DNA of 64,000 nucleotides, taken from NCBI GenBank assembly GCA_905178155.1, contig CAJINV010000004.1:94969-158968 (forward strand), read 5' to 3'. Shown in pieces: positions 6,343 through 62,949 of the stretch (position 1 is the first letter of the stretch; the number at the start of each line of letters is the position of its first letter). The notes under the pieces are model-generated. The model worked only from the letters and a program-made list of their open reading frames with translations. It ran no database searches and had not been told where the DNA came from. Made by a program: the position numbers and the translations under genes. This DNA comes from Amoebophrya sp. A120 (lineage: Eukaryota > Protista > Dinoflagellata).

Positions 6343-9300
6343 GTGGACCTCGACAAAGGACGAACTGCAAGCGGGAGAAATGCAAGCGTTGCTCCTGAAG
6401 GAAACGGACAAATCGGAGAAGAAGCTCCTGGAAGAAGTGCTAGAAATGTACTTTCAACGCCGTCGAAAGCGGATCAACATGATTTGGTGGATCATCCTCT
6501 CGACGTCGACTTGCTTCACGGCAGTAGCAAAACTGAACCGCCAGCATGTTGTGCCACGAACACCAATAAGAATAAAGAACTCGCTGAACTACAACAAGAT
6601 TCGGATACTACTCCACCTGGCCACGCTGACGCGGCATCTCCTTGCGTCGCTGAGTTCGCGGGGTCCAGAGGTCAAGGCTCTGCGTGGCAGCGGCACCAAA
6701 TAAGGACCAACTTTAATCGAAGCGGGATCGCATCCGGAGCCGCGTCGGCGGGACCACGGGAGGGAAATGACAAGCAAGAACATGATCGCCCAGACTACAC
6801 AGAACAAAGCCACAGCGCTTGCAAAAATGAAGGCAGCAAAGTTCTTGTTCCGCCTGTTGTGCTGGATGATGCTGCACCTTGTTCTGGTGGCAAGGAACAT
6901 GGCGACGAGGGGGCAAGAGTATTATCGCAAGCGCGACCTCCATCGAGTCGTGGCCTAGATTATCAAGCAAAAAAGTGTTAACGTTAACGGTTTTCCGCAG
7001 ATGGCAGTCAGGCATTACAAATTTTGCCTTCCATGCATGCTACGCAATACAAATTTGCGCACCTTTTCTGATGCGTCACTGCATCACAAATTCCGTTAAC
7101 GTTAACAATTTTTCTTGTGATATAGATGACGAGTCCACCGATGGCCCCGCCCGCGTGAAAAATATCAAAACCAAAAGTACAACTTCTATGCGGCCACCTA
7201 TCCTGAGTAAAAACATCCCCACCCCAGAGTTGTCATGCAGATTTGCAATTGCAGGAATCCGCATGTTGTGGAATCCGCATCACAAGTTCAAGAAGATCCG
7301 TGGGTCGTTCAAGAAGAAGATCCGTGGGTCGTACAAAAGTAAGTAGCTCGGTTCCAAGTCGTAGTTGTTTGTAATTCGGTAGGGAATAGAGCTAGATACT
7401 ATGACACATGCGCCGCGTTTGTTTTCGTAGCGTGACATACCTGCAGTAGCGTTTCAGTCTGGTTTTGCTAGAGTTGTCGAAAAAAAAAAAGCAGGTAAAG
7501 TTTTGCAGAATAAAAGCAGAATACAAGCACCTCCCCAGTGAAGGGGAGGCGCTTGCATGAAATTGTCTTTTTCTCACAAAAAACTTAGGACGTAGCTATT
7601 TGCTGCTATGTGCGGCTTCTCTTTTTTTTTTTCTCCCGGAGCCCGGACCTCCTCCTCCCGGACCCCGAGCCTTCTCCTCCCGGCGCCCGGGCCTCCTCCT
7701 CCTGGCGCCCGAGCCTCCTCCCCCCGCAGTCCGGGCCCCCTCCTCCCGCTGCCCGGACGTCCTCCTCCCGGAGCCCAGACCTCCTCCTCCCGGAGCCCGG
7801 ACCTCCCGGTCCAGGGCATCTGTTTCATCCGGTCCAGGGCGTAGACCCTTTCGCGCGGGTTTTTTTGGAGTTTGTTAGTCAGCAGGACCCTAAGTGGGAG
7901 TAGGGTGGATCCCTTCTGGGGAAGTGCCTCGCTTTTTCGGGATGTAACAGCCACTGATCCTGGTTGACTTGGAGCTGCTACCGCTTCAAGCATTTTCCGG
8001 CAACTTCTGCGCTGCGTGCGCTCATTCTAGACCCGGTTACCCGGGGGCAGGGAAATAACGTGGTCTGCGTGCCCGTGGTTGCGAGTTTGGGTTGCAGCTG
8101 CGCTTGCTTCGCAGGCTGTGTTCAGTCTGCTTTCTGTCTTCCCCTTGGGGGCAAGTGGGGCTGGGGCTGGCGCTGTTCCCCCCATTCAACCACCGGTGGT
8201 GGGGTTCTGGGGGGTCTTGCCCTGGGGGCCAGGTGGTGGTGGAGTGGGCCGCTCCCCGCTACGGAAGCTGGGCGCGGCCTGCTTGACCCAGCCCCAATAG
8301 GCGCGGTCCAACGGGCCGCTTGGGTGTGTGCTCTGGATAACACTCGGAAGGAACGCAACGAAATATGGCGTTCTCAACTGTTACATTCTCAACTGTTACA
8401 TGAATTTGTCATGCAAAAACAGCAACAGGGAAAGGGGAAAGCTTGCAAGTCTTGCATCACAAATTTGGCACGGATTCAGATGCTGTTTAGCCCTTCGATA
8501 ATTTGTCATGCGAAGCAGCTTGATCGGCTTGCGGCTCATGGTCATTTTGCATGACAAATCATGTAACAGTTGAGAATGTAACGTTTGAGAACGCCATAAT
8601 ATCAAAACCAAAAGTACAACTTCTATGCGGCCACCTATCCTGAGTAAAAACATCCCCACCCCAGAGTTGTCATGCAGATTTGCAATTGCAGGAATCCGCA
8701 TGTTGTGGAATCCGCATCACAAGTTCAAGAAGATCCGTGGGTCGTTCAAGTAGAAGATCCGTGGGTCGTACAAAAGTAAGTAGCTCGGTTCCAAGTCGTA
8801 GTTGTTTGTAATTCGGTAGGGAATAGAGCTAGATACTATGACACATGCGCCGCGTTTGTTTTCGTAGCGTGACATACCTGCAGTAGCGTTTCAGTCTGGT
8901 TTTGCTAGAGTTGTCGAAAAAAAAAAAGCAGGTAAAGTTTTGCAGAATAAAAGCAGAATACAAGCACCTCCCCAGTGAAGGGGAGGCGCTTGCATGAAAT
9001 TGTCTTTTTCTCACAAAAAACTTAGGACGTAGCTATTTGCTGCTATGTGCGGCTTCTCTTTTTTTTTTTCTCCCGGAGCCCGGACCTCCTCCTCCCGGAC
9101 CCCGAGCCTTCTCCTCCCGGCGCCCGGGCCTCCTCCTCCTGGCGCCCGAGCCTCCTCCCCCCGCAGTCCGGGCCCCCTCCTCCCGCTGCCCGGACGTCCT
9201 CCTCCCGGAGCCCAGACCTCCTCCTCCCGGAGCCCGGACCTCCCGGTCCAGGGCATCTGTTTCATCCGGTCCAGGGCGTAGACCCTTTCGCGCGGGTTTT

Positions 9301-12300
9301 TTTGGAGTTTGTTAGTCAGCAGGACCCTAAGTGGGAGTAGGGTGGATCCCTTCTGGGGAAGTGCCTCGCTTTTTCGGGATGTAACAGCCACTGATCCTGG
9401 TTGACTTGGAGCTGCTACCGCTTCAAGCATTTTCCGGCAACTTCTGCGCTGCGTGCGCTCATTCTAGACCCGGTTACCCGGGGGCAGGGAAATAACGTGG
9501 TCTGCGTGCCCGTGGTTGCGAGTTTGGGTTGCAGCTGCGCTTGCTTCGCAGGCTGTGTTCAGTCTGCTTTCTGTCTTCCCCTTGGGGGCAAGTGGGGCTG
9601 GGGCTGGCGCTGTTCCCCCCATTCAACCACCGGTGGTGGGGTTCTGGGGGGTCTTGCCCTGGGGGCCAGGTGGTGGTGGAGTGGGCCGCTCCCCGCTACG
9701 GAAGCTGGGCGCGGCCTGCTTGACCCAGCCCCAATAGGCGCGGTCCAACGGGCCGCTTGGGTGTGTGCTCTGGATAACACTCGGAAGGAACGCAACGAAA
9801 TATGGCGTTCTCAACTGTTACATTCTCAACTGTTACATGAATTTGTCATGCAAAAACAGCAACAGGGAAAGGGGAAAGCTTGCAAGTCTTGCATCACAAA
9901 TTTGGCACGGATTCAGATGCTGTTTAGCCCTTCGATAATTTGTCATGCGAAGCAGCTTGATCGGCTTGCGGCTCATGGTCATTTTGCATGACAAATCATG
10001 TAACAGTTGAGAATGTAACGTTTGAGAACGCCATAATATCAAAACCAAAAGTACAACTTCTATGCGGCCACCCACGAAAATATCAAAACGAAAAATCCCC
10101 CCTCCCCATATCAAAGCGGAAATCTGTGATGCAGATTTGTTGTCACAAATCAGCTTTGTTATGCTACACGGGAAAAGATGCGGACTGTAGTGCTGGGTGG
10201 CGTGGGGGAGCCTTGCATCTTCAGCATGATAGGAGGCAGCTGAGAGTGGGAAACAGCATGACAAATTGCCTGCAAACGAGACCACGACTGCGGCTCTTGG
10301 CCTTCTAGCATGACAAGTCGATTTGGTACCTCAAATCCTGCATCACAGATTTCCATTTCGATATGGGGAGGGGGGATTTTTCCGTTTGATAGAAAATGTC
10401 ATCGACCACCAGCACGACACCCGCAATCGACTGGGCAGAGGAACTGGCCAGCATCAAGGCCGCAAAACGCACCCTGGGTGCCGCGCGAGGAGGTGGAAGT
10501 GCTGGTGGACCCAGTTCTAGTAGCACAACTACAACTTTCACTTCGGTCCCGACCGCGGCTGCCCTTGCCAGTCCGCGCCCGCCAGTTTTGCCGCTTCCAC
10601 CTACTGGAGCTGCTACGACCAGCACGACCCCATCGTCATTTTTTTCAGACGGTCGATATAATTATGTCACTGAAAGAACTGAAGACAAAAGGTCCACTTC
10701 TCCAGGCGCTTTTTCTTTGTCTGTGGCACACCGCCGCTCTCTGGCTGCCACGAAGACGACGCGGAGTAGTTTTCCGAAAACAAAGACGCCTGAAGGTATG
10801 AGAACCGACGCTCATCGTGATAGCGCGCAACAAAGTAGCCAGCACAAAAAGGGTGCTGCAACGCGGGCAGAGGACCGTGGCTGTAGTTTGTGGTCAGCAG
10901 CATCTCCAAGTAACTTGCCGAGGACCAGCTGGGACGCAGAAGACCAGGATCAGGAATATGGCTACTCACTCAGGTGTTCTTACAAGCTCAGCTGTAGTTT
11001 TTACCACAAACAGGCGTGGACTTTGTCGTGCATGAGCAGCATGGGGAACATGCAGAGTCTTGCGCAAGCTTATCGCAATACTACAAATCTCGCCGGATGT
11101 CACGGGGGCTTCGGGCAGCTCCGGGACTACTTGTTATGCGCAATTCAGTGAGAGTAGGCCTAGCCCTACGCCAGATCGTGTCCTTCTTGATGCGCGTCGC
11201 AGTAGATTTCGACTCCTGTTGTAAGTAGAACGGTTGGCATTGTAAAACACCTGCGCAGGTCATAAAAAGAACGTAGTGGCTGATCATCTTTGCCCCGATT
11301 TGCAAAATAAGAACGAAGGCGACCTCTGGGCCGCTCTTGATGATAGTGACGACACCGGCGCTCTTGGTGCTGCCCAACATGAAGAGAGCGGAAGCGATAC
11401 GTCGCCAAGATGCGCTGTTCTCTCACACGGAACCTGGCGAGCAGAAGCACAAAGCCTCTGTAGGCCAACGACACACACAGGAGCGGCCATAGCAAGAGCT
11501 ACGCAAGGACAGCACCGTAATACTAGCAGGAGAAAACGAAACGTAGGAATAAAGATGCGGCAGAACGATCGTTACACCCTTACTTCATCTTCACAAAACG
11601 AAGACTCCGCGGCAACAGCGCAGCACCTATCTGCGAAAGAGATTCTAGCCAATCCCGAGGAGAACCAGATGCGAAAGCGGATGCAGCTGTCATTGGCGGA
11701 GATCTATCTTCTGCAAAAGTACTCGTCTAAATAATCGCGCTAGTCACACATGTTAACAGAGCAATCCGCATGACAAGTGCAAATCTGTATGAAGTTTTCC
11801 ACTTGATGAAATACATAGGTTGCCAACATGCAATTTCCACTGGTACGTACACGTAGTACGATTCCGATATATTTGAAGTTGAACTTTTGCAATGCATAAG
11901 ATGGCCGACGACTGGGATGCAAAGCGGGAACGGCTCGTGGCGGCGGCAGAAAAAAAGAGGCTGAGGAAAGCGTTGAACAGGGACGAAAGATTGTCCACAG
12001 GCCACATCAAGGAACTACAAAGCATTTCCATGCAAGAAAACCAAAACAACGGCAACAAGAATAGCCACGACGACGACCTGCGAAAAAATCGCGGAACACC
12101 ATCTAAAACCGGGGCGCCGTGGTCCTCAGAAGATATAATAACACGAAGTAGTACAAGAACTACTAGAAGCGGCGCCGGCGCGGCCCCGAGAAGAACACTT
12201 TCTGTAGCAGAAACAAACCTTCCTGGTCCAGAAAGATCTGATGTGCAGAACAACAAGTACCTCGGAGGGGGCGACACTACGCCGCATGGTACCCGCGTGC

Positions 12301-16695: not shown

Positions 16696-18180
16696 ACTAT
16701 CGTTAGTAGTACTTTGTTAGTTTATTGTCATCATGATGTTAGAAGCTGCCAGAAACAGTAAAACTGCCCACAAGTGCCGGCAGGGCCGTTACGCATTGAA
16801 GACGTGCCGTGACGTTTCTTGTATTTTTTGAAATACCGCTTTGATAGTTCAGGTCGGCTGCTGAAGTAACATTGTTTATGCCGAAACTTCTGTGAAACGT
16901 CTCGCCTTGTTCCCATGCGAAATCTAAATCGCACGTCCGACTACGGTGTGAGAGTTTTTCCTGCTGCGCCCCTACAGTAGCTGATAAGAGCCCTTAGACA
17001 CCATGAAACAAGGAGCCAAACTGTAGCCTCATCGCTTTTCAAAGCTTCTCCAGCAACAGACAGGCAAGGTCTTCGGCCGTGTTCCGCCCTTCCAGATTTC
17101 GCCCGTGTTGGGGCTCGTACTAGAGACCCAAAGCCCTCCTGTGCGTGTCCTCTCTTCCAGGTGCTTCGGGCTATCAGCGAGGAAGCCCAGTGAAAGGCGC
17201 GCGATGGTAGTTGGGCGGGTGTTTCTTAAAGAAGGTCCCAGGAGTAGACGTCGCCCCTTCTTCAACGAGGGGGCGCGAGTGCGTCCGCCAAGGGAGGGGG
17301 AACGGGTCCACCCTTCTGTCAAGGAGGGCGGGAGCTCCTCCCATCTCCAGGGTTCTCCAGGACGGATTCATTGAGGGACCCTCCCTTTTCCAGGTAGGCA
17401 TCCCGCCTTTTTTAAGGAGGGCTTCGCTCGCCCCCGCTTCGAGAGGAAAGAAGCCCAAGATGGAGCATCTCGGCTTCTTCAAGAGGGGGCGGCTATGGTA
17501 GGGCCATCGTTGGCCTACCTGCGGGTGGGATTCATTGTTGCAGGCCTTCTTCGAGGCGGCACTGGTGCAGCCGGTCCTTCGGCACGAGGCGATTGCAGGC
17601 GGTCTTGCATCAAGACGTGACTGCAGGGGGGCACATGGCAGGCCCGCCTGCGGCTTCGCAGAAGGCGGGGGCGGTGGCTCTGTATTGCAGAGCAGGCAGC
17701 TTCCACTGCCAAACAGATGGCCTCGACTGCAGAAAAGATGGCACTGACTGCAAAAAAGATGGCACTCACTGCAAAAAAGATGGCCTCCACTGCAAAAAGA
17801 TTGCCCCCACTGCAAAAAAGATTGGCCCCCGCTGCAAAAAAGATTGGCTCCGCTACCACTGCAAAAAAGATGGGAAAGGGAGAGTATAATGTTGGGGGCG
17901 TCGGCGTGGTGGGTAGGCCGTTAGCCCCCGTTACTCTTTGGTACTAAATCCGTTAGCCGGCGTTACTCTTTCTTCAATCCGTTATCCGTTACTCTTTGAA
18001 AACAGCACTTTCCTGCAGTCCGTTCCATCTTTTCTGCAGTCGAGCAACACTTTTCTGCAGTCGCTGCCTTCAGCGTCATCTTTTTTGCAGTGCAACTGCA
18101 AAAAAGTTTAGTGCTCGACCTTTGGCACTATCGTTAGTAGTGCTTCTGTATAGTTGATTCTCATCATGATGTTAGAAGCT
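16696..18180. mobile_element. ~1.38 kb insert flanked by diverged 52/54-bp direct repeats
   Basis: actatcgttagtagt...tcatcatgatgttagaagct at 16696-16747 and 18127-18180. Confidence 0.7.
17704..17873. repeat. Minisatellite, about 8 x 21 bp (cactgcaaaaaagatggc core)
   Basis: Visible tandem units; inverted ttttctgcagt copies at about 18008-18091. Confidence 0.85.
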
Positions 18181-18199: not shown

Positions 18200-20036
18200 T
18201 GCAAAGATGTTGTTGAAACAGGAAGCAATGCGCCAACCCGCCGCCTCGCCTCCGCGCCGGCCCGTGCGGCCCGGCCGGCCCTCCGAACTGCGTGCGGCTT
18301 TCCTTCCCAGGGTTGGGTATGCCTGCCCCCCCCCCCCCTCCAACGGCACGCAGGATCCCCCGCCGGCGGGTTGACCCCCGCCCGGCCGCGACTTTTGTTT
18401 CTTGGCGGGAGGGTAGGAGGTTGGATTGACGGCCCACCGCAAATTTTGGGCGCCGGCCCTTCCCGGGCGCCCGCCAAGAAACAGGTCTTTGCAGGGGAAT
18501 GCCGTATCCGCGGGCGGGCCCGAGTCTGTGTTGCCCGTCTCGCCCCGCAGCGCGCCCGTGCGTGGCTGGCCAGCAGGCCGGCCCGCCTTTCTACCACCCT
18601 TGCGGCGGACTGGGTAGGCTCGCTTTGGGCCAGGGGGGCTGCATGGTGTGGAAGGGCGCAAGCATAGGTATTACCCGGGCGACCTGCGCTTGATTCGGCC
18701 GCCGCGGCCCTCGGTTCGTTGCTTGGGAAGAAAGTCTATCGGCCGGCGCGCCGCCTGCGTTGGTTCTCGTTATTTGGATTGCAAGCATGGCCAAAGCCTC
18801 ACGCGTGGGGCCGGCCGGGGCCCCGCCTGCCTCGCTTCCCTCGCTGGCATAATTGGGGCGCGCGCCAGCTTCTGTCGGCCAGCTTGGCGCGTTCCGATTT
18901 CCCGCGCTGCGCTTGCGGGGTAAGTGCTTCGGGCGGCCCACCTGGTTCCCTGGGAGGAGGGGGCGGCCGTGGTGGAACGCGTCGGGCCGACGCCGGGCAT
19001 TTGTGTGCATTGCCCGCAGTGAGCTGCGCCCGGGCATAGCCCATTGATTGGCCCGCGCCCGCAACCGGTGGGTTTGCGGTTGGCAGGTTTCGTTCTATCT
19101 GCGGCCGGCGCTCTCCGCCGGGCGTGCTGGTCGCCCGGCCCTGGCCCTGGGGATAGAAGGACGGGCGCGGAAAAAGCATGGGTGCCCAGCAGGCCCGGCC
19201 AATCAACCCCGTCGCCGGCCAGTGGAATTCCCGCTGCGCCCCCGGCAATGTCAGCCCTTCGCCGCTGGTGCGCGGGGGTTGGTAAAGCGCGCCGGGGTTT
19301 TTGTTTTGAAAAAGCCGCGAGGTTCTTGCCGCGAGCGTCAGGTCGGGCGGCCTTCTGATGGGATACTCACTCTTAGGTGGCATCGGTCGGTGGTCGCGCG
19401 CTGGTTGGCGGAGAGTTGCTACAGGGGTGGCGGCGTCCTTTTGTGCTTGCTGGCCCCCTGCTGTGCGCCGGCGTTTGCGGTGTTAGTTTTCATTGTCCGG
19501 AGGCTTGCCGGCGCGTGATCGTGACATCAAAAAGGAAAAACGCCGCGACCCCCCGCCGCAGGCGTTGCGCCGTGCGTGTGGCGCCACGCACGCTGCGCCC
19601 GCGCTGCTCCGATTTTGTTTGGAGTTTTTCCCCCCGCCGGCATTGGGGTCGCCAACAGGCGACATGCGCTGTGCGGTCCGTTCCCTTTCCCGGTAAAAGC
19701 CTCCGAAGAGCCTGGCGGAGGTTTGGCGCGGATGGTTTTCATGGTCGACATGCCGGCGCGCCTCCTCTCTTCGTCCTGCGCGCCTTTGTCGGTTTGACAA
19801 GCAACTCCGCGCCCACAATCTGGCGCCCGTCGGGCGATGTATTTGGGGTCGGATCTCGTTCTCGGTGTCTCGGACGAACAACAAGCGGCCGCCCTTTGGC
19901 GCATTGGTTTTTTAGGGTCGTTCTTGGCTAAAGCCATTGACTGCGTTGGCTAAAGCCATCCGGCGGGGGGGTTAATTTTTGCCAAATGTGCCTTCATATG
20001 CAAAGATGTTGTTGAAACAGGAAGCAATGCGCCAAC
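18200..20036. mobile_element. 1761-bp GC-rich insert flanked by exact 38-bp direct repeats
   Basis: tgcaaagatgttgttgaaacaggaagcaatgcgccaac at 18200-18237 and 19999-20036. Confidence 0.85.
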
Positions 20037-21107
20037 ACGGCAGCACGCCCAGCTGCATGTAGACACACAAGTTAGTGCGCTTTGTGTCACCAGAAGCGTA
20101 AATAAAGATAAGTAACCCTTACAACTCTTTGTCTTTCTTTCTTTCCATGCCCGGGCATGGCGTCAATTGTTCGAGGCCCTAAAACATCCTTTGTTCAGAT
20201 CACGTCTCAGATCGCTCCGGTCAGCATCAAGCTCAATTTCTAAAAAAAAAACGTATTGTTTCTTGTGCAATAACAAATTCAGATCTAATATCCTGTTTCA
20301 TGAAAAAAGTATTCTCCTATCGAAAATCAAAATCTAACTAAACTCTCCTATAAGACATTTTCAAACGATGGTGTAGCTGTCTCGTATTTTGATCTTCTGA
20401 TGAAAAGTAAACTCTTTGTCTGACTCTTAAAGATCTATTCGTATAGTTGTATTTCCTAAAAGATAATCAGAATGTATGATCCTGATGTTGAAAGTTTGCC
20501 ACCCTGTTGAGAAACTCGCTGTGTAAGTGTAAAATAGGAAGCGGGTAAGTAGCATGGACGTGGGCAAAATCGACGATGACGCGCAGCGGATTAGGCGGCA
20601 ACATGATTTTCGACTCACTGTATTAGCTTCCAAGAGGAACCAGAAGTTGCCCGCGTATTGCTGCACTTTCCTGAAGGTACTTCTCTTCCGTTCTCTGCAC
20701 TGGATTGCATTTTTGAGATCTGCTGAAAATAAAAATAGTGTAAGTATGAGTATTTTTACAGGAAACTTGGCTCCGTGAAAAAATTACAAGCCTCTTAATC
20801 GATGTTGTCATCTGATCTCTTTAATTTCATTGTGCAAACAATAATCGCCAACAGCATTTGCAGTCGCAGCCACGAGGAAGGGTGACCACCGCGAGCTTGC
20901 CCATGACGTTGGAGAGAAAAGGCCCGGCAGAACCAGGAAACACTTCCTCAGCTGCAACCAGTCGTCAGGAGCATGATTGTGATTATGAATTCAACATTTC
21001 TTTTTGTTCATCATCTTCTAGGACTTACATAACAGCAAGATGTGGGAGACTTTTTTCCGGCCTGCCACCTTGAGAAGCGCACACGCAATTCTTTTTCTTC
21101 ATCATCA

Positions 21108-29110: not shown

Positions 29111-30315
29111 CCTGCATTGTGGGAACGATTGAAAAAGGCACAATCGACGCAGTTCTTGTTTGGTCATCTGGTAACCAAAGCGTGCCCTTGCGCTCGCAAG
29201 AGCGCTCTTTGCGAGATGCCCATCCATCGCAAACGCAGCGCGAAGGCTTTGCCGTTGCCATATGGGAGGATCTCGAGGGTATGCAACCACTCGCAAAATC
29301 GGGCAACTCCAATGCGGTTTTGCCGCCAGAGGGTGGATTTCGGACAAGTTGGCTCATTTTTTGAAAAAGTAAAAAAAGATGCGCAGTCAGATCGGGGAGA
29401 AGGGTAAAAAAAGGACTTTTTCGGCTCCGCCCGATCTGATTCCGAAGAAAGAAGCCCGATGATTGGGCTGCGCGCGATGCTGTGGCGCGTTTGGTAGCAG
29501 AAAACGCGTCACCTCCGGGCCGCCGCGGCCGATCTGCATCCAAAAAAAGAGAACAAAAAAAAGCGCACTTTTTTGCAGAATATAATGGGCCCAAAAAATC
29601 GACCGATTTTCTGCAGTGCCCAAAAGCCGATAAGCATCCGAAAAACGGTTTTTTTTGCAAAATAGAAGACCCGATCTGAAATGGCCGGCAAAAGAAGGCT
29701 TTCAAATTTGTCCGAGGTCCCGCGCCATCGGGATTGGAGGAGAAAAAATGGTACTCAGATCCTGCGGAGGCGTGTCCACACCCCACGGCTTTCGACCTCT
29801 GTGAGGGTCACAATTCGAAGCCCTCTTTCCGATTGGAAATGGTCGATTTGGGCGGCCCAAAAGGGCTGCCGGAAATGAAGAAAATTGTGTAACTTTTTGA
29901 AGTTTGTGCATTTTACCTGGCCAGCGTGCCTTCGTGTAAGTATAACGCTACGCGCGACGGCGTAGTGGCCTGCAGAAAAGGCTACTTTTTTCAACGGGCA
30001 TCGAAAGGATGCCCCGATGCGAAATAGCCGGGCTTCGCCTTCAATGCTTATCGCACGCAGGAGCCTGCGGGCCGCCGCGGGCGACAGTAGTTGTCCGCGG
30101 CCCTTTAGGGTCGCGGGGAAGTGGTGGAGCGATAAGCTTTGAAGGCGAATCCGGAAGCCCCCGATGACCCGAACAGGTCAGGGCCAGGGGTCAGCTCGAA
30201 CAAGGCTGGCGGGCCTTCGCGCTGGCTAGATGTTCGCGCACGCTTTTGGTTACCTGCATTGTGGGAACGATTGAAAAAGGCACAATCGACGCAGTTCTTG
30301 ATCTTGTTTGGTCAT
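29111..30315. mobile_element. 1085-bp insert with short TIRs, flanked by ~57-bp direct repeats
   Basis: cctgcattgtgggaacgattgaaaaaggcacaatcgacgcagttcttg..tttggtcat at 29111 and 30253; insert ends ggtaaccaaagcgtgc / gcacgcttttggttacc. Confidence 0.85.
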
Positions 30316-31042: not shown

Positions 31043-31131
31043 TGGTACGGAAAGCAGTGAATCGGCTTCCAGTGGAGAACAGCAGTTTCAAGTGGTACTC
31101 AAGGAAAAAAAATTTGCTAGTGTATGTCTGT

Positions 31132-36200: not shown

Positions 36201-39007
36201 GAGTTTCTCATGCAGGATAGGCATGAGAGCGCTCGCACAGAATCTGTCATGCTCCGTCCTGCATTCCAGACCCCATGGGTCATGCAAAAGCTGCATGACA
36301 AACCTGGCAATCTTCCTGACCCAGACATTTTTACATTTGATACGGTGCACCGCGATCGCATATTGAGAAACACGAGGGAGCAATACGAGCGGTTGTTGGA
36401 GCAAACCGGCGTTGTCATGGGGGACTGCCGGGAAAATGTTCCTACCCTAGAAGAAACCAAATCATAAAACAGCATCGCGGTGGTCGTCCTCGGCGAGTCG
36501 GCTGCTCGACGAGAATGAAGACGACTTGCATCACAAACACCACGCTGCTCTCTTACCTGCCCGAAAACTTGGCAGGCCAGGTAAGAGAGCGCCGTGGTGT
36601 TTGGGCCAATTTTTTTTTCGGCCGACGCGACCTTTTTTCCTTCCAAGCGCCACGCTATGCTCTTACCTGGCCTCAAAGTCTGGAGGCCCAGGTAAGAGCA
36701 CAGCATGGCGCTTGTGCTTCAAGAATGTGAATGTCTCACGCTTTGGCCACCTCCTCAGGCCAGCACGTTTTCGCATCCCAAACACCACGCTGCTCTCTTA
36801 CCTGGCCCCAAAACCTGGCAACCCAGGTAAGAGAGTGCCGTGGTGTTTGGGCGAATTTTTTTTTCGGCCGACGCGACCTTTTTTCCAAGCGCCACGCTAT
36901 GCTCTTACCGGGCCTCAAAGCCTAGAGGCCCCGGTAAGAGCGCAGCGTGCTGCTTGTGCCTCAAGATCACCCCCCTTATCTGGCTTTCTCGGGCCAAGAC
37001 ATTTTCGCATCACAAACACCGCGCTGCTCTCTTACCTGGCCCCAAAACCTGGCAGCCCAGGTAAGAGAGTGCAATGGTGTTTGGGCCAACTTTCGGTGGC
37101 CGGAGCAATCTTTTTCCCCGGCGCCACGCTATGCTCGTAGCTTGGCGGCCAAGAATCTATTTTTGATCTACTCCCTCCAAATTTTTAGTCGAAGAAATTC
37201 ACTACCAAAAACCGTATCGCGGTGGTCCTCGGCTAGTCGGCTGCTCGACGAGAATGAAGACGACTCGCAAGATTATCCTATTTGAAAATGTCCCCACCCT
37301 ATTACTATCTATTATATTCATGCGAAAGTAGAGGTCTACAGAGGATAAAAGAGAGGTGGCCGAGAGGTCAAAAAGAGGCCGACAGAGGTAAAAAAGAGGT
37401 CGACAGAGGTGAAGAGGTGGCGCGGGAGGTCTTTCGAGAGGGAGACCGAGAGGCGGCGCGAGTATAGCCCGCCGAAGGGTCCACCCTTTAGCGCCGCTGA
37501 AGCGCCTCGGAGGGTGCAGAGAGGTGGAAAGGAGGGCAAGCGAGAGGTGGGCAGAGGTGCCGAGAGGTTGCGCGAATAAGGCGGGACCTCTTGCGCACCC
37601 TCTCGGCGACCTCCCGGCCACCTCTGTAGCCCTCTGCCCGCGAGTATAGCCCGACTATTAGCGGGGACCCCCGAGAGAGGTCAAAAAGAGGGGCCGCGAG
37701 AGGGTCCAAAAAACCCGAATCCGCCCGGCACGCGGCCGATTTTTCTGGGGCTTTTTCATTGCGCAGGCCCACGCCCTCTCGTGCTACCACCTCGCGCACC
37801 CTCTCGCGCACCCTCCCGCGTCACCCTCTCGCGCGTGATCAAAAAAGGACAGCGCGGCCCCCGTTCTGCTTCGGTAGGCACCTACGCCGAGGCGGTTTCG
37901 CTTCGTCCTCAAGCTTCGTTGCGGCTGCTCCCTGCGCATAGCGCCGGAAGGCGCGGGAAGCGCGCAGGAAGCACAGCGGGCTGAGATGACGCAAACCGCG
38001 CCGGTATTTCCCTCGACCTATCACGTCGCGCGCAATCAAAGCCATGGCGTTGTGGCCCTGTCCGCAAATAGTCCTGCCCCGCCACAACAGCCGCTCGCCC
38101 CGGCGTCAGCCGGGGCATGGCTGGTAGTTGTAATGCAAATCTGCATGCTGAGAATGTTTCTCATGCGGAGCCCCATGAGAACCATTCTCTAGTCGTGTTT
38201 TGAAATTTGTCATTCTCCAATCAGCATGGTATGCTAGATCTGTGATGCTGCTCAGCTAGCTCAAACAGCACTACGCTACGAATCCAAATTTGTCATGCAA
38301 AACAGCCAAAGCTTGTGGATTTGTCTAGCCGATTCCCCATCTTGACTATGGTGTGGGGACGTTTTTACTCAGGATACAAGATTGATGAATTCCTTGTTGA
38401 AGATAGTAGAACAAGCACATTTAAATTTATCCCAGTTAAAGCTTTGACGAAAAACAGCAAGCTCCTAGTACAGGGAAAAGGCAACTTCTCCGCAGCCCCC
38501 GTGTAGCGCCGTCGACGCCGATTTGCCATACGTTTACGTGATTATGGTTTTTTTTTCATCTTGCATAACTGTGCACGGCAAGCCGAAATCTTTCTATCAG
38601 GGGGTGGTGTTCGAGCGGTTGTGGCATGTCATTTTCGGCGAGGCGTTGGTTGTCGAGAGGCGCAAAGACCGAAAGGATCTAGCGGGTGAGACTATCAAAT
38701 GCAAAAGTGTCTGGGTCTGGAACAAAGCAACTTGTCATCCTAAATCTGAATCGTGTAAAAATCTGTGTTGCATGATTACCAAAAGCTGTCCACTTTTGAC
38801 CTAATCGAGAGGCAGTCTCTCATGCAGAGTAGGCATGTAGAACTCTCACGACAGAATCTGTCATGCTATGTCCTACATGCCAGACGACCTCATGGGTTAT
38901 GGAAAACCTGCAGGACAAATCTGGCAATCGTCCAGACCCAGACACTTTCACTTTTGCAATCCATAGAGACTGTCATACGAGGATGGCACGATTACGACGG
39001 ACCTTGA
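33233..39007 (+). CDS. DUF3431-like protein (multi-exon)
   Basis: Motifs in the expected order: VVVRCSEDISWL; DEASGYLTYILQAWPQFPEWVAFLQ; AGAQFAVHRDRILRNTREQYERLL (after splicing); GVVFERLWHVIFGE; splicing of 36.45-38.6 kb unresolved. Confidence 0.75.
33523..33832. mobile_element. Aged family H element
   Basis: tatgttggaaccgtcaggattgaaatcgtcaaag...ctttgtcgatttcaaacctgacactcccata; cctga on both sides but offset 3 nt on the left. Confidence 0.75.
33949..34224. mobile_element. Introner-like element, family A
   Basis: tatgcatcgcaaatgtttctgggtctggaa...ttccagacccagacac..tttgcatttgata; DR aaaaa/aaaaa. Confidence 0.85.
34298..34606. mobile_element. Introner-like element, family C
   Basis: tatcaaaaggaagcatcccctctccccatatc...gatatggggaggtgcaatttttcctcacaata; DR ggggc/ggggc. 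Confidence 0.85.
35161..35342. mobile_element. Aged family B element
   Basis: tatgccttg...gagtgcggtactttgcgcaggtggata; DR ttctt/ttctt; joins TASF|FRKRQFPGWCW. Confidence 0.75.
35706..36027. mobile_element. Introner-like element, family C
   Basis: tatcgtgaggaaaaatcccccctcccc...ggggtgggggcttttttcactttgata; DR agcct/agcct. Confidence 0.9.
36081..36342. mobile_element. Introner-like element, family A
   Basis: tatcaaatgtaaaaatgtctgggtc...gacccagacatttttacatttgata; DR cggtg/cggtg; joins QFAV|HRDRIL. Confidence 0.93.
36474..37269. mobile_element. ~690-bp hairpin-array insert flanked by ~55-bp imperfect direct repeats
   Basis: atcgcggtggtc..ctcggc.agtcggctgctcgacgagaatgaagacgact.gca at 36474 and 37216. 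Confidence 0.8.
37274..38376. mobile_element. Family E element carrying about 0.8 kb of GC-rich cargo
   Basis: tatcctatttgaaaatgtccccac...gtggggacgtttttactcaggata; flanked by caagat/caagat; right end matches the left end at 7199. Confidence 0.75.
38693..38965. mobile_element. Introner-like element, family A
   Basis: tatcaaatgcaaaagtgtctgggtctgga...tccagacccagacactttcacttttgcaatccata; DR gagac/gagac. Confidence 0.9.
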
Positions 39008-45083: not shown

Positions 45084-45239
45084 AAGAAGATAATATGAAA
45101 TAAATATGACATCGATCTGCTCCATCTTCTACTGTAGCGCGCGCCCGCGCCGCGACTTCTGTAATTATTATATGGAGGCCCGCTCAGGTCGTAATAATTT
45201 ACTCTTTATGATGTATATCATGCAAATAACGGCGCCGCA

Positions 45240-46748
45240 TTAAAAAAGAAAAAAGACGATGTCGATCGCCTGAACCACGATGTCGATCGCGCTTATTCCG
45301 GCAGCCCGGGCGCCAGAAGGGCATTCCGGACGGAGCAGTCCCGGGGCCGGGCGACTGGTGTGCGTCTCTGTTGCCAAGGGGAGACGTTGCGTATTGGCTT
45401 GCCCAGTTACCGCCCTCGTAGATGGTTTGTGTATTTTTCCCTATTTGTCGGAGAACAGAAATTCGAACTCCGATTTTCTGCTTCCGAGGTGCATTTCAAA
45501 ATCAAGTTCAAAATCCGTTCAAAATCCGTTCAAGACCAAATTTCTAATATGGCGAAGAGGTTTTGAACGGATTTTGAACGGAATTTGAACGGAGGTTTGA
45601 GTTTCGTTTTGAAATTGGTGGAAAATTTGAATCACGTTTTGAAATTGGTGGGAAAGTTGAAATACGTTTTGAAATTGGCCTGTGGGATGAATTTCGTTTT
45701 GAAATTGGCCTCCCTCATCAATGACGCTTCGAAATTCCAACCCGGGGCGAAGCCACGCTGCGAGCCTACGGCCTGGGCTAGTCGACCGCCAGCATGCGTG
45801 AAAATTGCCGCCAAATAGCCTCCGCAGCAGCAGCGGCAAAGGTATTTTGGGGGCGCGCGCGCTGCGCGCGCGCAGTACTCGTCTTTCATTCGCCAGCTAG
45901 GGCTAGCAATGCCGCGCGCCCTGTGTCCTTCTTCGTGTTTTGGCAAAGCGCATCGAGGCGCGAAGGCCTGTGGCATCGCTTGGAAAGGATGGTTGGAAGC
46001 CGGACAACCTGAGGCCGTCGGGCTTTTGTGTTCCCTTGTCCACGCCCCCCAATGTTGTCGCTGCGCGGCTAGTTGTCTTCCTTCAGGTAGATTCATTGTC
46101 TCTTCGGCAGTTGTTGCTCCCGACGTGGTCGCTTCGGGAGTTCGACGCGGGCCGCGACGGTGGCAACCGAAGGGCCGGGCTTCTCTTGTCACTCGCCTTA
46201 CATCAAAAAAAGCAACGCGCCCCCCTGAAGGCTGGGCGATTTTTCGTACTCACCCGGGCGAGTAGCATAGCGTAGCCTCCTCGTGTAGTGTGGCTGGCCT
46301 TTGTTTGCGGCGCCTCCCACCTCCGCGGCCCGCCCCGAACTGCCTACGGCCGGCGGACGGGGTGCCCTCTGCCCGGCGCTTTCCTTTCACTAACCGGCGC
46401 AAGGCGCTCGGCCGGTGAGGTCGTGGATAGATGCTCGCCAAGGATGGTGCGCGAGCGGTACAACACCACGAGCGGGCGATGAGTAGTGGGAGTCTGCTTG
46501 CGGCTATTGGCCCCAAAGCGTGCATTGCGTGGGATGACGACGAGACCTTGGCCAGGTTCTGTGGTGAGGCATGGCAACTGCTGACTTTTTTTGCAAAATG
46601 ATCCTTGCCACAGGTGTCCAGCGGCACCGTGAAAGTCTGAAGCCTTGAAATTTTGAATTTGGTTTGAATTCGATTTGAAAAAGAATTAATTTTCGGCGAC
46701 TTTGGATTTAAAAAAGAAAAAAGACGACGTCGATCGCCTGAACCACGA
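45240..46748. mobile_element. 1427-bp insert flanked by 41-bp direct repeats (1 mismatch)
   Basis: ttaaaaaagaaaaaagacga(t/c)gtcgatcgcctgaaccacga at 45240 and 46708. Confidence 0.85.
45605..45738. repeat. 30-bp-period array of cgttttgaaattgg with variable spacers
   Basis: Units at 45605, 45635, 45665 and 45695; degenerate unit at 45725. Confidence 0.9.
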
Positions 46749-48211: not shown

Positions 48212-51200
48212 ATGGGAGCGCCGTCGACGGGACAATACAAGCTGGGCTTCCTTGGGGGCGGCATGATGGCAGAGGCCTTGATCGGCGGGATCTTAAAAAA
48301 GTCCCTCGTTTCGCCGGAGTCTATTTTCGTGTCTGACATGAGCGCCGACCGTTTGGCCGTGCTGGAGAAGAAGTACAAGGTTCGGACGACGCAAGAGAAC
48401 GGCGAAATTGTTTGGCAGTCCGACGTATCCTGTGCAAAAGTATCGTACTCGTATAAATCCGCTGCTGGCATGCATATAACTTCTCACCAACCTCTCACCA
48501 ACTTATCATGAACTTCTGCCCAAGCTTTTCACCAACTTCCCAGCTGTTGAGAAGTTGGCGTGGACCCTTTACCGCGGTTGTTGGGAAGCTTGATGCGGAG
48601 TTGAAATCCGCACCAAGCTCCCCACAAGCTTGAGCTTCTGGCTAGGACGTCTGAAAAGGAATATTCGTCCGGGCCTCGATTCGTGGCCGCGTACGCAGTC
48701 ACGAATCAGGCTCCGTGATGGCCCTACTTCGGCTGCTAAGCTTGTGGAAGATAATTTGATAATCTTCTGCACCAGGAGACTTTCGAGGTCCTTGTCGTGC
48801 ACAAAGCAAGCACTTCTCGACGAACACCCCGGCGCATTTCGCGGTAAGCTTCGAGCTTTTGGAGGCGTCATGCAAGTTTTTGCATGACGCCTCCAAAAGC
48901 TCGAAGGTTGCCGCGAAATGCGCTGGGATGTTCGTCGAGAAGTGAAGCGAGAAGTTGTTGAGAAGTTGTTGAGAAGTAAGTTATTCAATTCGGCCATAAT
49001 TGATGTAGGACGCACGCAACGTCGCGGCTTTTTGTTAAAACAATTAAAACGCAAGCACAAATCAACTCACTTATTTAATATAGGCAATTGACTAATTAAT
49101 AGATTAATCAATTGATTACGAAGTGGCGCCAAGTGAAAACGGAGCAGGGGCAAAGCTTGCACGCCGAAGCGGCGCGCAGCTCCACGCACATCGTCGAAGG
49201 CAGCTATTCTCCCTTCCGGCGCTTCCGTCTTTGATGGCTGCACGCAGGACAGGTGCGCGCGCGCAGACATCACGGTCGCGCTTCCTGCCGCCTCTTGTAT
49301 ACGGCTTTGCGCGTGGTGCCGTCGTGCTAACTGATGAGACTGCGCTGCAGATAAATGGACAGAACAGGACTGCCGTCTTCTTCCCATTTGTCTGCAGCGC
49401 TGTTCCTTCCCGCTCCAAGCAGCGAGCACGATATAACTCGCAGCGGCGGAGTGACGCGTCGCTTGGTCGAGGCGAGAACGACGCCAGCACGCCGCGCCAC
49501 TTCTCACCGACCTCCGCACCAACTTCGCGGCCGACTTCTCGCCAACTTCTCCGTCAGTTTACGCATAAAAATGCTAGCGGATTTATACGAGTGCGATACT
49601 TTTGCACAGGATACGACGTGATCCTTATCGCCGTAAAGCCGCAGGGTTTCCCCGCCTTGTGCAAACAGGTGGATCAGTTTTTGGAAACGAAGGCGTGCCA
49701 GCCACCTGGAGCAAACTCATCTCCAAAACCGCGGTATCCGGCTGGCAAGGTGTTTGCGAGCATTATGGCGGGGGTAACGCTACTACGCATTGCAAATTGA
49801 ATTTATATGTCTGGGTCTGGAATAAACCTGTAATGCTATTAGCGACTGCAGATCAACATGCTTATATTTATAATACATACCGCTGAGTGGAGCCCAGCGT
49901 GACAAATTCTGAGGCGCTTTCTGATGCGTAGCGCGCTCGCGCATTAGATGAAACTGCGCTTTTTCATATAGGAAACAGAGCTCGTCGCTTTTGTATTTGT
50001 TGGTCCTGCAGTACAGATTCTGCAGGAATCCAGAACACGCAATGCAGGTTCAACTTTTATTCCCGACCCAGAGTACATATTTGCGATCCATAACTGCAGA
50101 CGCTGGGGGAAAGCATCGGACGACACGGTGACGTAGTGCGGGTCATGCCAATATCAACTGCAAATATGTGTGGGTCTGGCAGATTACCAGGTTTGTCTCT
50201 GTCTGGCATATTTTGCATGACCCGTGATGCTTGTGATGCATGCGCTAGCATCACAGATTTTTTGAAGCAAGGCTTCCTGATGCCTATCTCGCATGTTGAC
50301 AAATGCCCTCCCCTCGTAGCACAAACTGGACTCCTCTTGCTGGTCCTTACGCAATACAGATTTTCATTTTTTTAGACTCCAAAGACAGCATGATCACAAA
50401 GTGCAACCTTCCAGAGGACCCAGACCTATTTGCAGTTGATAGCCCAACACACCCGCCATGGTCAACGCAGCGGCGTCCGCCTACGCCCTCCACCCCCTGC
50501 ACTTCTCGAAGGACGGCGAGGCAAAGGTGCCCTTTGTGGAACAGATCTTCAGCAGCATCGGAATTTGCTGTCAGGTACCTCTACGGATACGACAACTTGT
50601 TTGTCATTGAAGGTCTTCTACTTGATTCGTTTGGTTGCAGAAAGAACTAGAGCCAGCCCAAGAAACTAGAAAAAAAATTTCTTTACTTATTCTTGCTTTA
50701 GTGAATAAAATGAACATGGATTTACTTCCACGACGTATATGTTGTATAATGGCTGTGTTAGAAGAAATGAATGCCGTGACGATCTTCTTCTGACCTAAAA
50801 CTCAACTCCATCTGTATCTCATTACACGATCCGACACCACCACCACCACCACCAGCTTCCGTCTGAGACTTACATGGATGCAGTGACTGGGCTCTCTGGA
50901 TCAGGACTATCGACCGAGTATCGAAGTAGTTCTAATATTACCTGCGCCGGCAAGAACTACGCCGCGACCTTTCCTCCGGAGACATGCATTTTTTGAATAA
51001 TACTTGCTCGTTGCGCTTCCGGTTGTACTTAACTCTAAAGTGCCTTACGTTAAAAGCAATTCAAAATGATTTCAAAAGGAATTCAAAAAAGTGCACTTTT
51101 CGTTTTTCCGTAAAATTGGGTGTGGATTTCCTTCATTTTTTCGGATGCGTGGCTTCTTTTTTCGGCGTCTAATTTCCGCCCTGTGTCTGGCGGCCTAGCG

Positions 51201-53157
51201 CAATAGAAATTGGGCGGGGCGGATTGGTAAACGCGCGCTCAGCTGCGGTAGTGGGTCTCTGTTTCGGGCACATGACTGGATGGAATGTGCCCAGGTTTTG
51301 TGTGCCAGTTGGTGCTCCTACCACGCTTTGCAGCGAATCGCTTCCATGTATGCCCAGGACCTAGGCACTCAGCTCGGGCTCCTCTAGAACCTCTGCGCTA
51401 GGTACAAAGACGTTGGGATGCATTCTGTTTTGTGTTATTGTTGAAGCTGCTGCCTGGGAGACATGTTTATGACCGATCCTGGGAGTGCTTTTTGTGTAAA
51501 GGCTTTCCTTCGTGATCTTCTCCAGCCCCTCTTTCTTTCAGAGTATTGTGGTATAGCTTGCGGGACGTCGATAGGCCCGGCTTCACGCCGAAGGGCTTTT
51601 CGACAACGTTTCGGAAGAGGGATTCCGATACTCCAAAGGGCCTGCAGTAAAGCAAGCCAACTCAAGAGGCCCCGGCTCTTGAGAAATCTCCTCTCGCCAG
51701 ATTCAAAAAATAGTTGGAAATAAGTTGGAAGCCAACTTTTTTCTGTTTCCCATACTAAGAATCCCTGATCCAACTAGTTTTGAACTTGTGTCCAACTTAT
51801 TCCCAACTTTTTTTTTGAAATTGCCCAGGGCCGCCAATTTCTTTTTGAATTGTCTCGGGGGCGCCAATTTCTTTTTGAATTCCATCTCACCCGCCAATTT
51901 CTTTTTGAATTCCGTTCAGGCCGCCAATTTCATTTTGAAATTGCTCAGGCCCGCCAATTTCCTTTTGAAAGTGGGCACTCTGTATGATGTCGCTATGGTA
52001 TTGATTTGGTCTGTGTCCTGGGATATATGTTAGGCCCTAACGAGGCCCGCTCAATCGGGGGGAGAGGCTGCCTCTGGGCTATCTTTCGGCCGCTCCGGGA
52101 ACAGAATTGCGTTGGCCCCGTGCGCTGCGGCTTTGCGCGGGCGTGGTGTCTGTCAGAGGAATTGCCGAGGGCCCATGGCGGCCCAATCTGAAGCGGCCAC
52201 GCCATTTTCCAGAGCTTGTGGCCGTGCCAATTCCAAGCCACACACCCTCCCGAATGAAGCACGCGCAAAAGTGGATGGCCTTGCGTTATTCAAGCAACTT
52301 ACCCCGCGCGGGCACACGGCATAGGGCCCAAGAATGGCCCGCATCCGGGTCGCGGTCTTTCATTTTGGCGGGAGATTCGGCATTTCTATGGGAAGGCGAA
52401 AGTTGAAAACCTTGACTTTTTGAATTCCTTTTGAAATCAACATTTTGAATATGAATTAACGCCAGGGCGCTTTGTGATTAACGGTTGTGCATAGAATATA
52501 GTCGATGGTAAATTTTTTCAAGATCTCTAGCGGCAAAATGAAAAAAAATCCTGCGAGGCTCACAGTGGAAGCAGGATAGAAGGCTCGTCTCTTCTAATTA
52601 TATTGTGCTGTTTGAAAACTATTTATTATGCGGTGATTTTTGCGACGCTCCTGGTTTCCGTTAAAAAGCACAGCTTCCTCTTCTAAATTGCATTTTCGTA
52701 AAGTAGGTAAAGGTGTATTAAAAACTCTCGGCCCGCGACCCGCTTGTCATGATGAAATAAGTAGAGTTGTGCAGTACTTCATCTAACTTGCAGCTCTTGA
52801 CGAGCTTGGTCCTTCTCCTTTTGCCGGCGCAGCACATCACAGAACTTCTCCTTTCCTCGGTGATACAGGCCCGCGTACGTGTATATGATGATCGAGGCGC
52901 TTAGTGACGGTGGCGTGAAAAACGGGTTGCCCCGGGCACTGGCCCTCCAGCTTGCCGCGCAGACGGTGATGGGTAGCGCCAAGATGGTGCTCGAGAAGGG
53001 TGAGCACCCAGCCGTGCTGAAAAATCAAGTGGAGTCCCCCGCCGGGACAACGATCGCCGGCACGGCGAAGCTCGAGGAGCAGGGCTTTCGGAACGCCATC
53101 GTGCAGGCAGTTTCTGCGGCAACGCAGCGCAGCGCGGAACTCGGCGCGAAAAAGTGA
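48212..53157 (+). CDS. proC: Pyrroline-5-carboxylate reductase
   Basis: Spliced motifs [16 protein letters not shown]; SD|VILIAVKPQ; SIMAGVTL; VRVMP|NTPAMV; [11 protein letters not shown]|[39 protein letters not shown]; [11 protein letters not shown]; four TAT-type elements and a GT-AG intron at 50575-50855. Confidence 0.95.
48426..49613. mobile_element. Family B-ended element of 1188 bp with cargo (proC intron 1)
   Basis: tatcctgtgcaaaagtatcgtactcgtataaatccgct...agcggatttatacgagtgcgatacttttgcacaggata; DR cgacg/cgacg. Confidence 0.93.
48811..48944. repeat. Hairpin with ~65 bp arms inside proC intron 1
   Basis: cttcgagcttttggaggcgtcatgcaa gttt ttgcatgacgcctccaaaagctcgaag core, extending to cacttctcgacgaac/gttcgtcgagaagtg. 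Confidence 0.9.
49784..50092. mobile_element. Aged family A element with a TAC left end
   Basis: tacgcattgcaaat..gtctgggtctgg...gacccagagtacatatttgcgatccata; DR gctac/actgc; joins GVTL|QTLG. Confidence 0.8.
50152..50441. mobile_element. Family A element (reverse orientation)
   Basis: tatcaactgcaaatatgtgtgggtc...gacccagacctatttgcagttgata; DR gccaa/gccca; splits the MPNTP motif. Confidence 0.88.
50908..52865. mobile_element. 1958-bp aged TAT...ATA intron with structured cargo
   Basis: tatcgaccgag..gtagttct / agaacttctc..ctcggtgata; removing the element plus 5 nt restores SGSGPAY. Confidence 0.8.
51801..51970. repeat. 30-bp-period array of ccgccaatttctttttgaatt with 9-bp variable spacers
   Basis: Units at 51831, 51861, 51891, 51921 and 51951; degenerate unit at 51801. 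Confidence 0.9.
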
Positions 53158-60808: not shown

Positions 60809-62949
60809 ATATGATCGAACTGGGGGTGTGGGAAGAGCTTGTATCCCGTACAACAGCATCGCACTCGTAGTAATTGCGATTATCTATGCATTCATACAAA
60901 TCTTCATCCCAGGGTAAAACATTTGTCATGCAGCTGAGGTAGTTTATTGTAATGCAATTACCACTGGTACGATGCTGTTGCAATGCATAGCTTGACGTCA
61001 GTTGCAACTACTTCGAAAACGGGGACTTGCTCGATTTCGTGCGCCGAGCGGTGTTCTCCGGGAAGTACCCGAAACAGGTGAACATGCCCGTAGCGGCAAA
61101 AACGGAATTACCCTCATCCAGCGTTGGAGGAACAAGTAATGCACTACAAGAACCTCCAGTCGCTGGGGACAACGAAACGAGTGGAAAAAATGGCTATCAT
61201 GTATCGAGCAAAAATCTGTTATCGTTTATCGAATTGACAATTTGAAGCGAAAGCGACTATTTTTTTAAAGTTAGCTAGTGAGGGAGCTATCTTTGGCCCC
61301 GACTATTTTGATGTAGTTAGGTGCGATCGGTCACCCTTCTGGGGCAGCAAACGCTGAACGAGACGCGACCGATCTTGAGGTGGTGGCGGTCGGGTTCCAG
61401 TGTCGCGCTGGCATCCCAGGCCGGACTCGACGTCCGATCTTTGCCTCATGTCGCAATTCCGCCTGAGAACGCCAAAAGAGTAGACGAAGACCACCTTGCC
61501 CGAGAAAGCTCATGCGAAATACCTGCCACTGCGGTTGCAGAAGTGCCGGCAAAAGAGGAGAGATGAGGCGCAACGAATACGGATCGGCCTCATCCTGTAG
61601 TCTCAGCTTCAGCCCCGAGGAGGGCTCAGACACCGCCTCGCTCTGTCTGCCCACCATCTCGCGGCCACCATCGTCGCCGGGCTCTGACCAGACAACTGAT
61701 TGTTGTCTTGTTATCGGTTTGGCCTTCCGAACCGATAAGAGGCATTTAAACACGGCGGCACGCGGACTATAAAAGTGACCAAAAATGGTGCTTGTTATCG
61801 GTTTTGCCGGAGGCCTCTGAAAAATAGGCAATTTGGGAGGTCAAAGTTGCCGGATTTCCGAGTCCCTGTCCAAAACCGATAACATCGACGCTTTTTGGTC
61901 ACTTTTATAGTCCGCGTGGCACCGCGCTTAGCTCCATTTTTCAGGCCAGATCCCGGCGACGATGGTGGCCGCAAGATGGCGGGCAGGCAAAGGGGGGCGG
62001 TGCCCCGGTCTTGCTCGGTGCTGAGACGGGGAGTACAGGATGAGACGGAGCGGCATTCTTGTTGCCTCGTCCCTCCTCTTCCGCCGGCACTTTTGCAACC
62101 GCAGTGGCAGGCTTTTCGTGTGAGCTCTCCCGGATAAGCTGGCTTTCGTGCACTCTTCTGGCGTTCTCAGGCGGGATTGCGAGTGGGGCCAAGATCGGAC
62201 GTTGAGTCTGCCCCAGGATGATTTGCGCGGCATCGGAACCCGACCGCCAGCACCTCACGATCGGCCACGTCTCGCTCGCCGTCTGCTGCCCCAGAAGGAT
62301 GACCAAATGCACACAACTGGATCAAAATAATCATGACAAAAGGTAGCTTCTTCAGCAGCTAACTTTAAAAAAATTTTCGCTTTCGGTTGCAATCGTTTAT
62401 TCGATAACGATAACAGATTTTTGTTCGAGAACCTCCAGTCGCTGGGGACATCGAGACGAGTGGAAAAAATGGCTATCATACCGCGACGAACCAAAATGCG
62501 ACTTCTACTGCGGCACCCAACGGCATCAATCAAGGGCCACAGCTACTATCCAATGGCGTCGCTAGCGGAAGGGGCACGCCGACCAGTGCCAGAACCAGGT
62601 CCGTGCCACTCTTGCTGCGGTTACACAGCTATGCATTCTTGCAAAAGTCATATCGTACTAGTAGAAGTCGCATTTTTTTACAAATATCGCTCAGCATGAA
62701 GAGAAATGACAATGGGATTTGTCACACGGCCGCACCTTAAGAAGGGGGTTAGGGTTTGTCATGATGCATGATTGCGATTACTACGAATGCGACGCTTTTG
62801 CAGTGCATAACAGCAACCACGAGGCAGAGCTGGAAAAGGAAGCGCGAGCGGCGCTAGTGGCGGAGTTCGGGGACCGGCTGCAATTTGTGGAAAACACGAC
62901 TCTATCCACTACAAAAGTCTTTAAAATCGTACTTGCATTTGGGAAGTAG
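60809..62949 (+). CDS. Partial gene for an unknown protein with one LRR-like motif; upstream exons likely near 60.2-60.5 kb
   Basis: Manual splice: MIELGVWEEL|DVSCNYFENGDLLDFVRRAVFSGKYPKQ...GKNGYH|TATNQNAT...PLLLRLHS|NHEAELEKEARAALVAEFGDRLQF. Confidence 0.5.
60842..60989. mobile_element. Family B element (reverse orientation)
   Basis: tatcccgtacaacagcatcgcactcgta...gtacgatgctgttgcaatgcata; DR gcttg/gcttg. Confidence 0.85.
61152..62480. mobile_element. 1229-bp foldback element with family G-like ends, flanked by 50-bp direct repeats of exon sequence
   Basis: DR acctccagtcgctggggaca.cga.acgagtggaaaaaatggctatcat at 61152 and 62431; arms about 61202-61807 versus 61871-62430 are diverged inverted copies. 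Confidence 0.9.
62630..62809. mobile_element. Aged family B element
   Basis: tatgcattcttgcaaaagtcatatcgtactagtag...ctacgaatgcgacgcttttgcagtgcata; DR acagc/acagc. Confidence 0.82.

Follow-up and report, generated by a model that had tools for sequence, protein, structure and literature searches.

The length of the flanking duplication is a feature used in the classification of transposons. The introners of Amoebophrya have been published with direct repeats of 3-5 nt (Farhat et al., 2021, PMC7789003; here and below, statements on published work refer to excerpts of the papers cited), and in the family table for strain A120 the duplications, where given, are of 2-11 bp among 56 of its 58 rows (Gozashti et al., 2025, PMC12130899). 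Introners of Polarella and Symbiodinium carry 3-8-nt duplications (bioRxiv 10.1101/2020.10.14.339549). The DNA studied here is a stretch of 64,000 nt from Amoebophrya sp. A120 (contig CAJINV010000004.1, positions 94,969 to 158,968, forward strand; hereafter the window); the proteins encoded in it bear the name of this strain or an A120 gene identifier. Introners of the TAT...ATA type are numerous in it and carry 5-bp duplications, in line with the 3-5 nt published. In the same window, seven inserts (I1-I7) are flanked by direct repeats (DRs) of 37-62 bp, and inserts of this kind have also been found at loci of a second assembly (numbered with L).

These inserts resemble the Amoebophrya introners in their host organism, in the TAT...ATA-type ends found at I1 and I7, as the preliminary description of this DNA had proposed, and in the excision of I7 from a gene model as the element plus 5 nt. 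They differ in their DRs of 35-62 bp (one of about 100 bp) and in being larger, mixed and often one-ended. Other systems are close in different respects. Aberrant retroviral integration combines one normal and one truncated or defective end with an enlarged host duplication (PMC5041404, PMC5488345), and duplications of 61-450 bp accompany HERV-K insertions in rare cases (PMC5488345); however, those events are described as rare or drug-induced and broad in length, whereas the present ones are frequent, narrow in length and made of DNA-transposon pieces of several families. A mode named in bacteria, "insertion with long target duplication" (Furuta et al., 2010, PMC2853133), shares with our inserts a duplication of more than 30 bp and the lack of mobility genes (0/8 open reading frames with a Pfam match); it is prokaryotic in the excerpt, with a restriction-modification cargo of which the eight frames show nothing, and is defined by an empty site, none of which was found here. 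Variable or long duplications in a protist are known from Replitron-1 and some Helitrons of Chlamydomonas and from R9/Dualen long interspersed nuclear elements (LINEs); the variable duplications of Chlamydomonas span two transposon groups, and their cause is given there as unknown (PMC10288648, PMC9977147). Those elements, as excerpted, belong to defined families whose termini are fixed and which encode their enzymes, whereas our inserts share no terminus, tail or open reading frame. Finally, our inserts share captured genomic DNA and junction filler with repair-mediated duplication (PMC2671141) and with the transposed genes of Arabidopsis, which have flanking repeats of more than 30 bp and for which circle re-insertion has been proposed (PMC2869330). 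In these systems the junctions lie off transposon termini, and the vertebrate duplications in the excerpt measure 4-21 nt (PMC2671141).

The long-DR inserts work like known aberrant insertions, yet do not answer to the definitions of an introner, an element with long terminal repeats (LTRs) or a retroposed copy. In the open-access literature we found no account of a long-DR footprint in Amoebophrya or in introners, nor of any introner that left behind a peptide repeat as long as this one. Long duplications as such are known elsewhere.

Long direct repeats in two assemblies

The seven pairs reported in the preliminary description were all recovered in a seed-and-extend scan (Table 1). Six two-copy pairs scored 69-89 bits and I1, in which a 1437-bp unit stands twice in head-to-tail order with one mismatch (a 1475-bp match), scored far higher. 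No further pair in the window exceeded 35 bits. In 30 Markov-resampled 64-kb controls, the comparison that had been called for, pairs spaced by 0.3-3 kb reached 33 bits at most. Because of this separation, the long-DR pairs are a discrete class and not a product of chance.

Table 1. Long-DR inserts in the window and in the second assembly, with one short-duplication transposon (M51) for comparison.
Feature	Position	Strand	Direct repeat	Insert and surroundings
I1, DR copy 1	7161..7198	+	37-38 bp; 38 bp exact, three copies at 7161/8598/10035	In a frame open from 6304, spanning the 6961-7122 introner
I1, insert copy 1	7199..8598			Begins with the left terminus (TATCC...) of an introner family
I1, insert copy 1, right end	element 8364-8598			Right terminus of another introner family (...CCATA), without 5-bp duplication
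I1, second DR copy with second insert and third DR copy	8598..10072			Tandem
I1, DR copy 3	10035-10072			Contains the annotated P0005 start codon
I2	16696..18180		16696-16747 / 18127-18180; 52/54 bp, 91% identity	1379 bp with short arrays; between P0005 and P0001
I3	18200..20036		18200-18237 / 19999-20036; 38 bp, exact	1761 bp, GC-rich; starts 19 bp past I2
I4	29111..30315		29111-29167 / 30253-30315; 57 bp, right copy with 6 extra bp	1085 bp; short inverted repeat at the termini, a few bases out of register
I5	36466..37266		36466-36527 / 37208-37266; 62/59 bp	680-bp hairpin array; likely exonic
I6	45240..46748		45240-45280 / 46708-46748; 41 bp, 1 mismatch	1427 bp; right end similar to the terminus of M51; at least 10 DR bases repeated at the left junction
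I7	61149..62479	+	61149-61200 / 62428-62479; 52 bp, 2 mismatches	Full-length foldback TAT...AGA at 61202-62430
M51	51026..52481		Short: 7 exact bp, or about 9 bp if 1 mismatch is allowed	Complete non-coding transposon with terminal inverted repeats
L016			58-60 bp	942 bp
L032			35-36 bp	1104 bp
L057			36 bp	558 bp; starts 6 bp inside a terminus
L058	1181-3746		58, then 35 bp	Two inserts (L058a, L058b), three DR copies
L073	588-5635		About 100 bp	5 kb: repeat-rich piece and methyltransferase-like gene fragment with two introners

The second assembly was sampled as 92 loci pulled by the introner motif (about 713 kb, non-redundant), and it shares its introner elements with the window at identities of up to 98%. 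It gave 468 direct pairs, of which 33 low-copy rows were inspected; seven rows, at five sites, were kept, and 26 were set aside because they looked like repeats within proteins, arrays, portions of larger local duplications or matches close to chance. With five further sites, the class is not peculiar to the window. A few of the pairs set aside (24-37 bp, in L014, L026, L064 and L078) could be shorter or older members. The inserts also tend to cluster, with I2 and I3 only 19 bp apart and two different inserts between the three DR copies of L058, which looks as if one site had been hit repeatedly.

The nature of the repeats is best seen where one family carries two kinds of footprint, a situation observed directly for M51, a transposon that we take to be Mutator-like. 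A Mutator family with an 8-9 bp duplication is listed for A120 (PMC12130899). The L032 insert is 98% identical to M51, lacks the left ~350 bp and ends exactly at the right terminus; its DR is a 36-bp sequence absent from the window and from the rest of the sequence examined. The same terminal repeat on every copy, expected of LTR elements or of their miniature forms (TRIM), is therefore not found in this one comparison, in which the possibility raised beforehand that the DR travels with the insert also failed. A second case concerns the introner that ends I1. Its 97.9% identical copy in locus L008 is flanked by the usual 5-bp duplication; the one in I1 lacks it and has its end against the long DR, so that this introner moved together with 1.16 kb of neighbouring DNA. 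Both comparisons argue that the long DR belongs to the event and not to the family. Since the M51 family carries either about 9 bp or an unrelated 36-bp DR, the DRs are likely to be host target duplications rather than element ends, and the two copies differ from each other in five of the seven window pairs. The host-like appearance of the DRs had been remarked on in the preliminary description, and in this it was right. Its proposal of a second footprint distinct from the 5-bp one of the introners is borne out as well: among 490 ordinary introners scored in the window and the loci, 298 have a 5-bp duplication, 189 were scored with none and three have 7-23 bp, and none of the 490 has a DR of at least 24 bp. 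The gap in length between the two sorts of duplication, about tenfold, is thus a direct observation.

Insert content and junctions

What found no support was the idea, in the preliminary description, of a single class of element. The inserts are visibly unrelated and have neither common ends nor a common body. Some are truncated transposons, others are composites, and one contains part of a host gene; the sole links among those of the window are that of I6 to M51 and that of I1 to an introner terminus. I7 is a 1.2-kb full-length foldback with 73% identity between its arms. Rfam gave nothing in the window, and no poly(A) or common 3' end was found at the insert junctions. The introners retained inside I1 and L073 imply that these inserts are not processed RNA copies, and the 3' tail or common end and the loss of introns that mark non-LTR retroposition are missing. 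In L058b (L058:2748-3164), the insert opens with a frame of 139 codons whose product looks like the C-terminal domain of an integrase, a lead from the ESM Atlas with no Pfam match. Copies of the bodies of I1-I7 were absent from the 92 loci, an exact 22-mer of the I4 end had no match in metagenome contigs, and the introner pattern had none in viral contigs.

Read depth of DNA contigs covers 28500-47500, where the summed depth is a rough guide. Single-copy pieces have a depth of 33-49, interior bins of I4 390-480 and those of I6 130-180, while contigs 44719-45345 and 46667-47168 pass through both I6 DRs at 43-46, the single-copy level. The interiors of I4 and I6 are therefore dispersed repeats and the I6 DRs are not; the assembly may have been built from this very DNA run, which checks the junctions but is not independent evidence for them. 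Two introner-ended elements with short duplications (37274-38376 and 48426-49613, 1.1-1.2 kb) have unrelated interiors, as captured DNA inside an introner would, and the interior of the former is repeated by read depth. L015:14455-15081 is a 627-bp palindromic element with AT-rich flanks and without a long DR.

A recognisable transposon terminus lies at the junction or within 6 bp of it in 6/13 distinct inserts (I1, I4, I6, I7, L032 and L057); termini are weak in I2 and I3, and none is seen in I5, L016, L058a, L058b or L073. The ends are odd or mismatched: those of I1 belong to two families, I7 reads TAT...AGA, the short inverted repeats of I4 are mutually offset, I6 has one terminus and L057 starts inside its own. 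Inverted repeats of 8-20 nt at both ends, as in introners, are present in I7, offset in I4, from two families in I1, and weak or absent in I2, I3, I5 and I6, and at the border the 3-5-nt direct repeat of introners is replaced by 37-62 bp. The pattern expected of a one-ended insertion, with one exact end, the other truncated or altered and the duplication enlarged, is clear in L032 and partial in I6, I7 and I4; I1 has two exact ends and L057 has no exact end. The terminal motifs of Replitrons or Helitrons are not found, as the inserts share no termini. At three of the 26 junctions, 10-12 bp of the DR close by are found copied, compared with 1.3% among 4000 positions chosen at random, and such templated copies are presumably a signature of repair synthesis. 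An ATG motif 10-12 nt before the DR end, noticed by eye in 5/7 window cases (four on the + strand with script boundaries), recurred in 0/6 in the second assembly and was rejected.

Gene models at the insertion sites

In the window, I7 is an intron of the published model P0006, its DR being coding host sequence, and the protein across it reads ...PVAGDNETSGKNGYH PVAGDIETSGKNGYH... The gene models of A120 were built from transcript alignments (PMC7789003). The model requires excision of the I7 element, set at 61202-62430 by symmetry, plus 5 nt. Of 17 ordinary introners examined for this geometry, 15 show it; another yielded 6 nt, its boundary having been set a base short, and the last did not lend itself to the test. 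With a duplication of 50 bp, removal of the element plus 5 nt leaves an in-frame duplication of 45 nt, and thus a repeat of 15 residues in P0006. It appears, from these models, that in an exonic insert with paired ends introner splicing would take the element plus 5 nt whatever the length of the DR. For I1 the same rule would leave 37 - 5 = 32 nt and so shift the frame. The annotated P0005 starts inside the last I1 DR although the frame is open upstream, which would fit a gene split by I1. To judge from the sequence, I5 probably interrupts an exon, as the frame around it reads open with the inserts taken out; I2 and I3 are intergenic, and I4 is near the end of P0001, within an intron of its model.

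The C-terminal part of P0006 matches translated introner sequence (window 7200-7247, a match only), which suggests that the model may include an unspliced introner beyond the window. For the genes at 20554-31504 and 43475-45083, A120 has close paralogues at other places, as seen from P0002 (88% identity) and from variant contigs, and a paralogous locus might supply empty sites for I4 or I6.

Routes of insertion and their meaning

None of the three mechanisms offered in the preliminary description (widely staggered nicks, repair-templated insertion, and recombination between elements at neighbouring sites) is settled; the best fit is a combination of end-joining by a transposase with repair by the host. 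DNA freed at the ends of transposons would be inserted in an uncoupled way, its first end being joined normally by a transposase or integrase and its second by host repair, which would copy 35-60 bp in place of the usual 5-9 bp. In this account, to which we give an even chance, a single DR before insertion, the order of the steps and the enzymes involved are inferred. Retroviral DNA with one bad end offers a precedent, since it is completed by host enzymes, often truncated and with larger duplications (PMC5041404). Several observations weigh against uncoupled insertion. Neither an empty allele nor an orthologous site of the window appeared among the 92 loci, so that "target duplication" is itself an inference, and no transposase was identified. 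The DRs measure 35-62 bp in 12/13 inserts, a narrowness for which the model gives no reason, and aberrant retroviral duplications, in the excerpts, spread over hundreds to thousands of bp. A general uncoupling of integration should mark some ordinary introners, and it marks 0/490; 7/13 inserts have no recognisable terminus, although these are not assigned to any family. The density is about 15-fold lower in the second assembly (5 sites in about 713 kb) than in the window (7 in 64 kb), which may reflect contig breaks at repeats together with gene-rich sampling, or an unusual window. The I7 splice, moreover, rests on a published gene model and not on reads.

Pure repair capture would dispense with the transposase: nicks in opposite strands 35-60 bp apart would be filled in and available DNA patched between them, transposon pieces predominating merely through their abundance. 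The unrelated inserts, the host-gene piece with introners in the 5-kb insert of L073, the likeness of L058b to an integrase fragment, the templated junction copies and the reuse of one site (I1, I2/I3, L058) all speak for it. Yet both junctions of I1 and one of L032 coincide exactly with transposon termini, and those of I4, I6 and I7 come within a few bases, which would be rare for random filler; the vertebrate repair-mediated duplications reported in the excerpt reach only 21 nt (PMC2671141). We consider this explanation unlikely. Less probable again is alternative transposition or recombination, in which the ends of two elements or of sister chromatids cooperate, or a hop of about 50 bp recombines with its parent. 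Such reactions give flanking duplications in maize and Drosophila (PMC3744419), and they would suit the two-family ends of I1 and the presence of both inverted repeats in I4 and I7; however, they yield neither truncated ends (L032, L057) nor inserts without termini, and they predict a wide range of lengths.

A narrow range is what a dedicated wide-stagger enzyme would produce, for example the endonuclease of a non-LTR retroelement acting in trans or an unknown transposase. Long duplications are on record for R9 (126 bp) and Dualen LINEs (PMC9977147), and introners derived from non-LTR elements have been reported for A120 (PMC12130899). The junctions, nevertheless, have no shared end motif in addition to lacking poly(A) and a common 3' end, introners were kept in I1 and L073, and the ATG near the DR end did not carry over from the window to the other sites; an enzyme of this kind seems improbable. 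We give very little credence to the notion that the DRs are element termini, such as short LTRs, or assembly artefacts. In its favour, the near-perfect I1 tandem is known from the assembly, and the comparison of whole-insert flanks between copies covers the M51 family. The differences between DR copies, the I6 junctions inside single-depth contigs, the coding nature of the I7 DR, the recurrence of the class in a second assembly, and M51 without a long DR beside L032 with one all point the other way.

A family with 9 bp or 36 bp according to the intactness of its ends points to a host route that matters at the scale of the genome. Introner pipelines that seek short duplications would miss long-DR inserts. 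By separating the ends of the element from those of the repeat, I7 provides a test of how Amoebophrya splices its non-canonical introns: in its gene model the cut tracks the geometry of the hairpin (element plus 5 nt) and not the direct repeat, and it illustrates a way for intron gain to add a tandem peptide repeat. A bolder version, which we hold only tentatively and think rather doubtful, is that a routine route with a set stagger of 35-60 bp pastes any transposon-ended DNA, hairpin-guided, non-canonical splicing then removing the insert plus 5 nt regardless of the repeat and turning hits in exons into in-frame peptide duplications. If true, the rapid evolution of proteins that has been reported in Amoebophrya would have one more, new source, and introner splicing a natural test.

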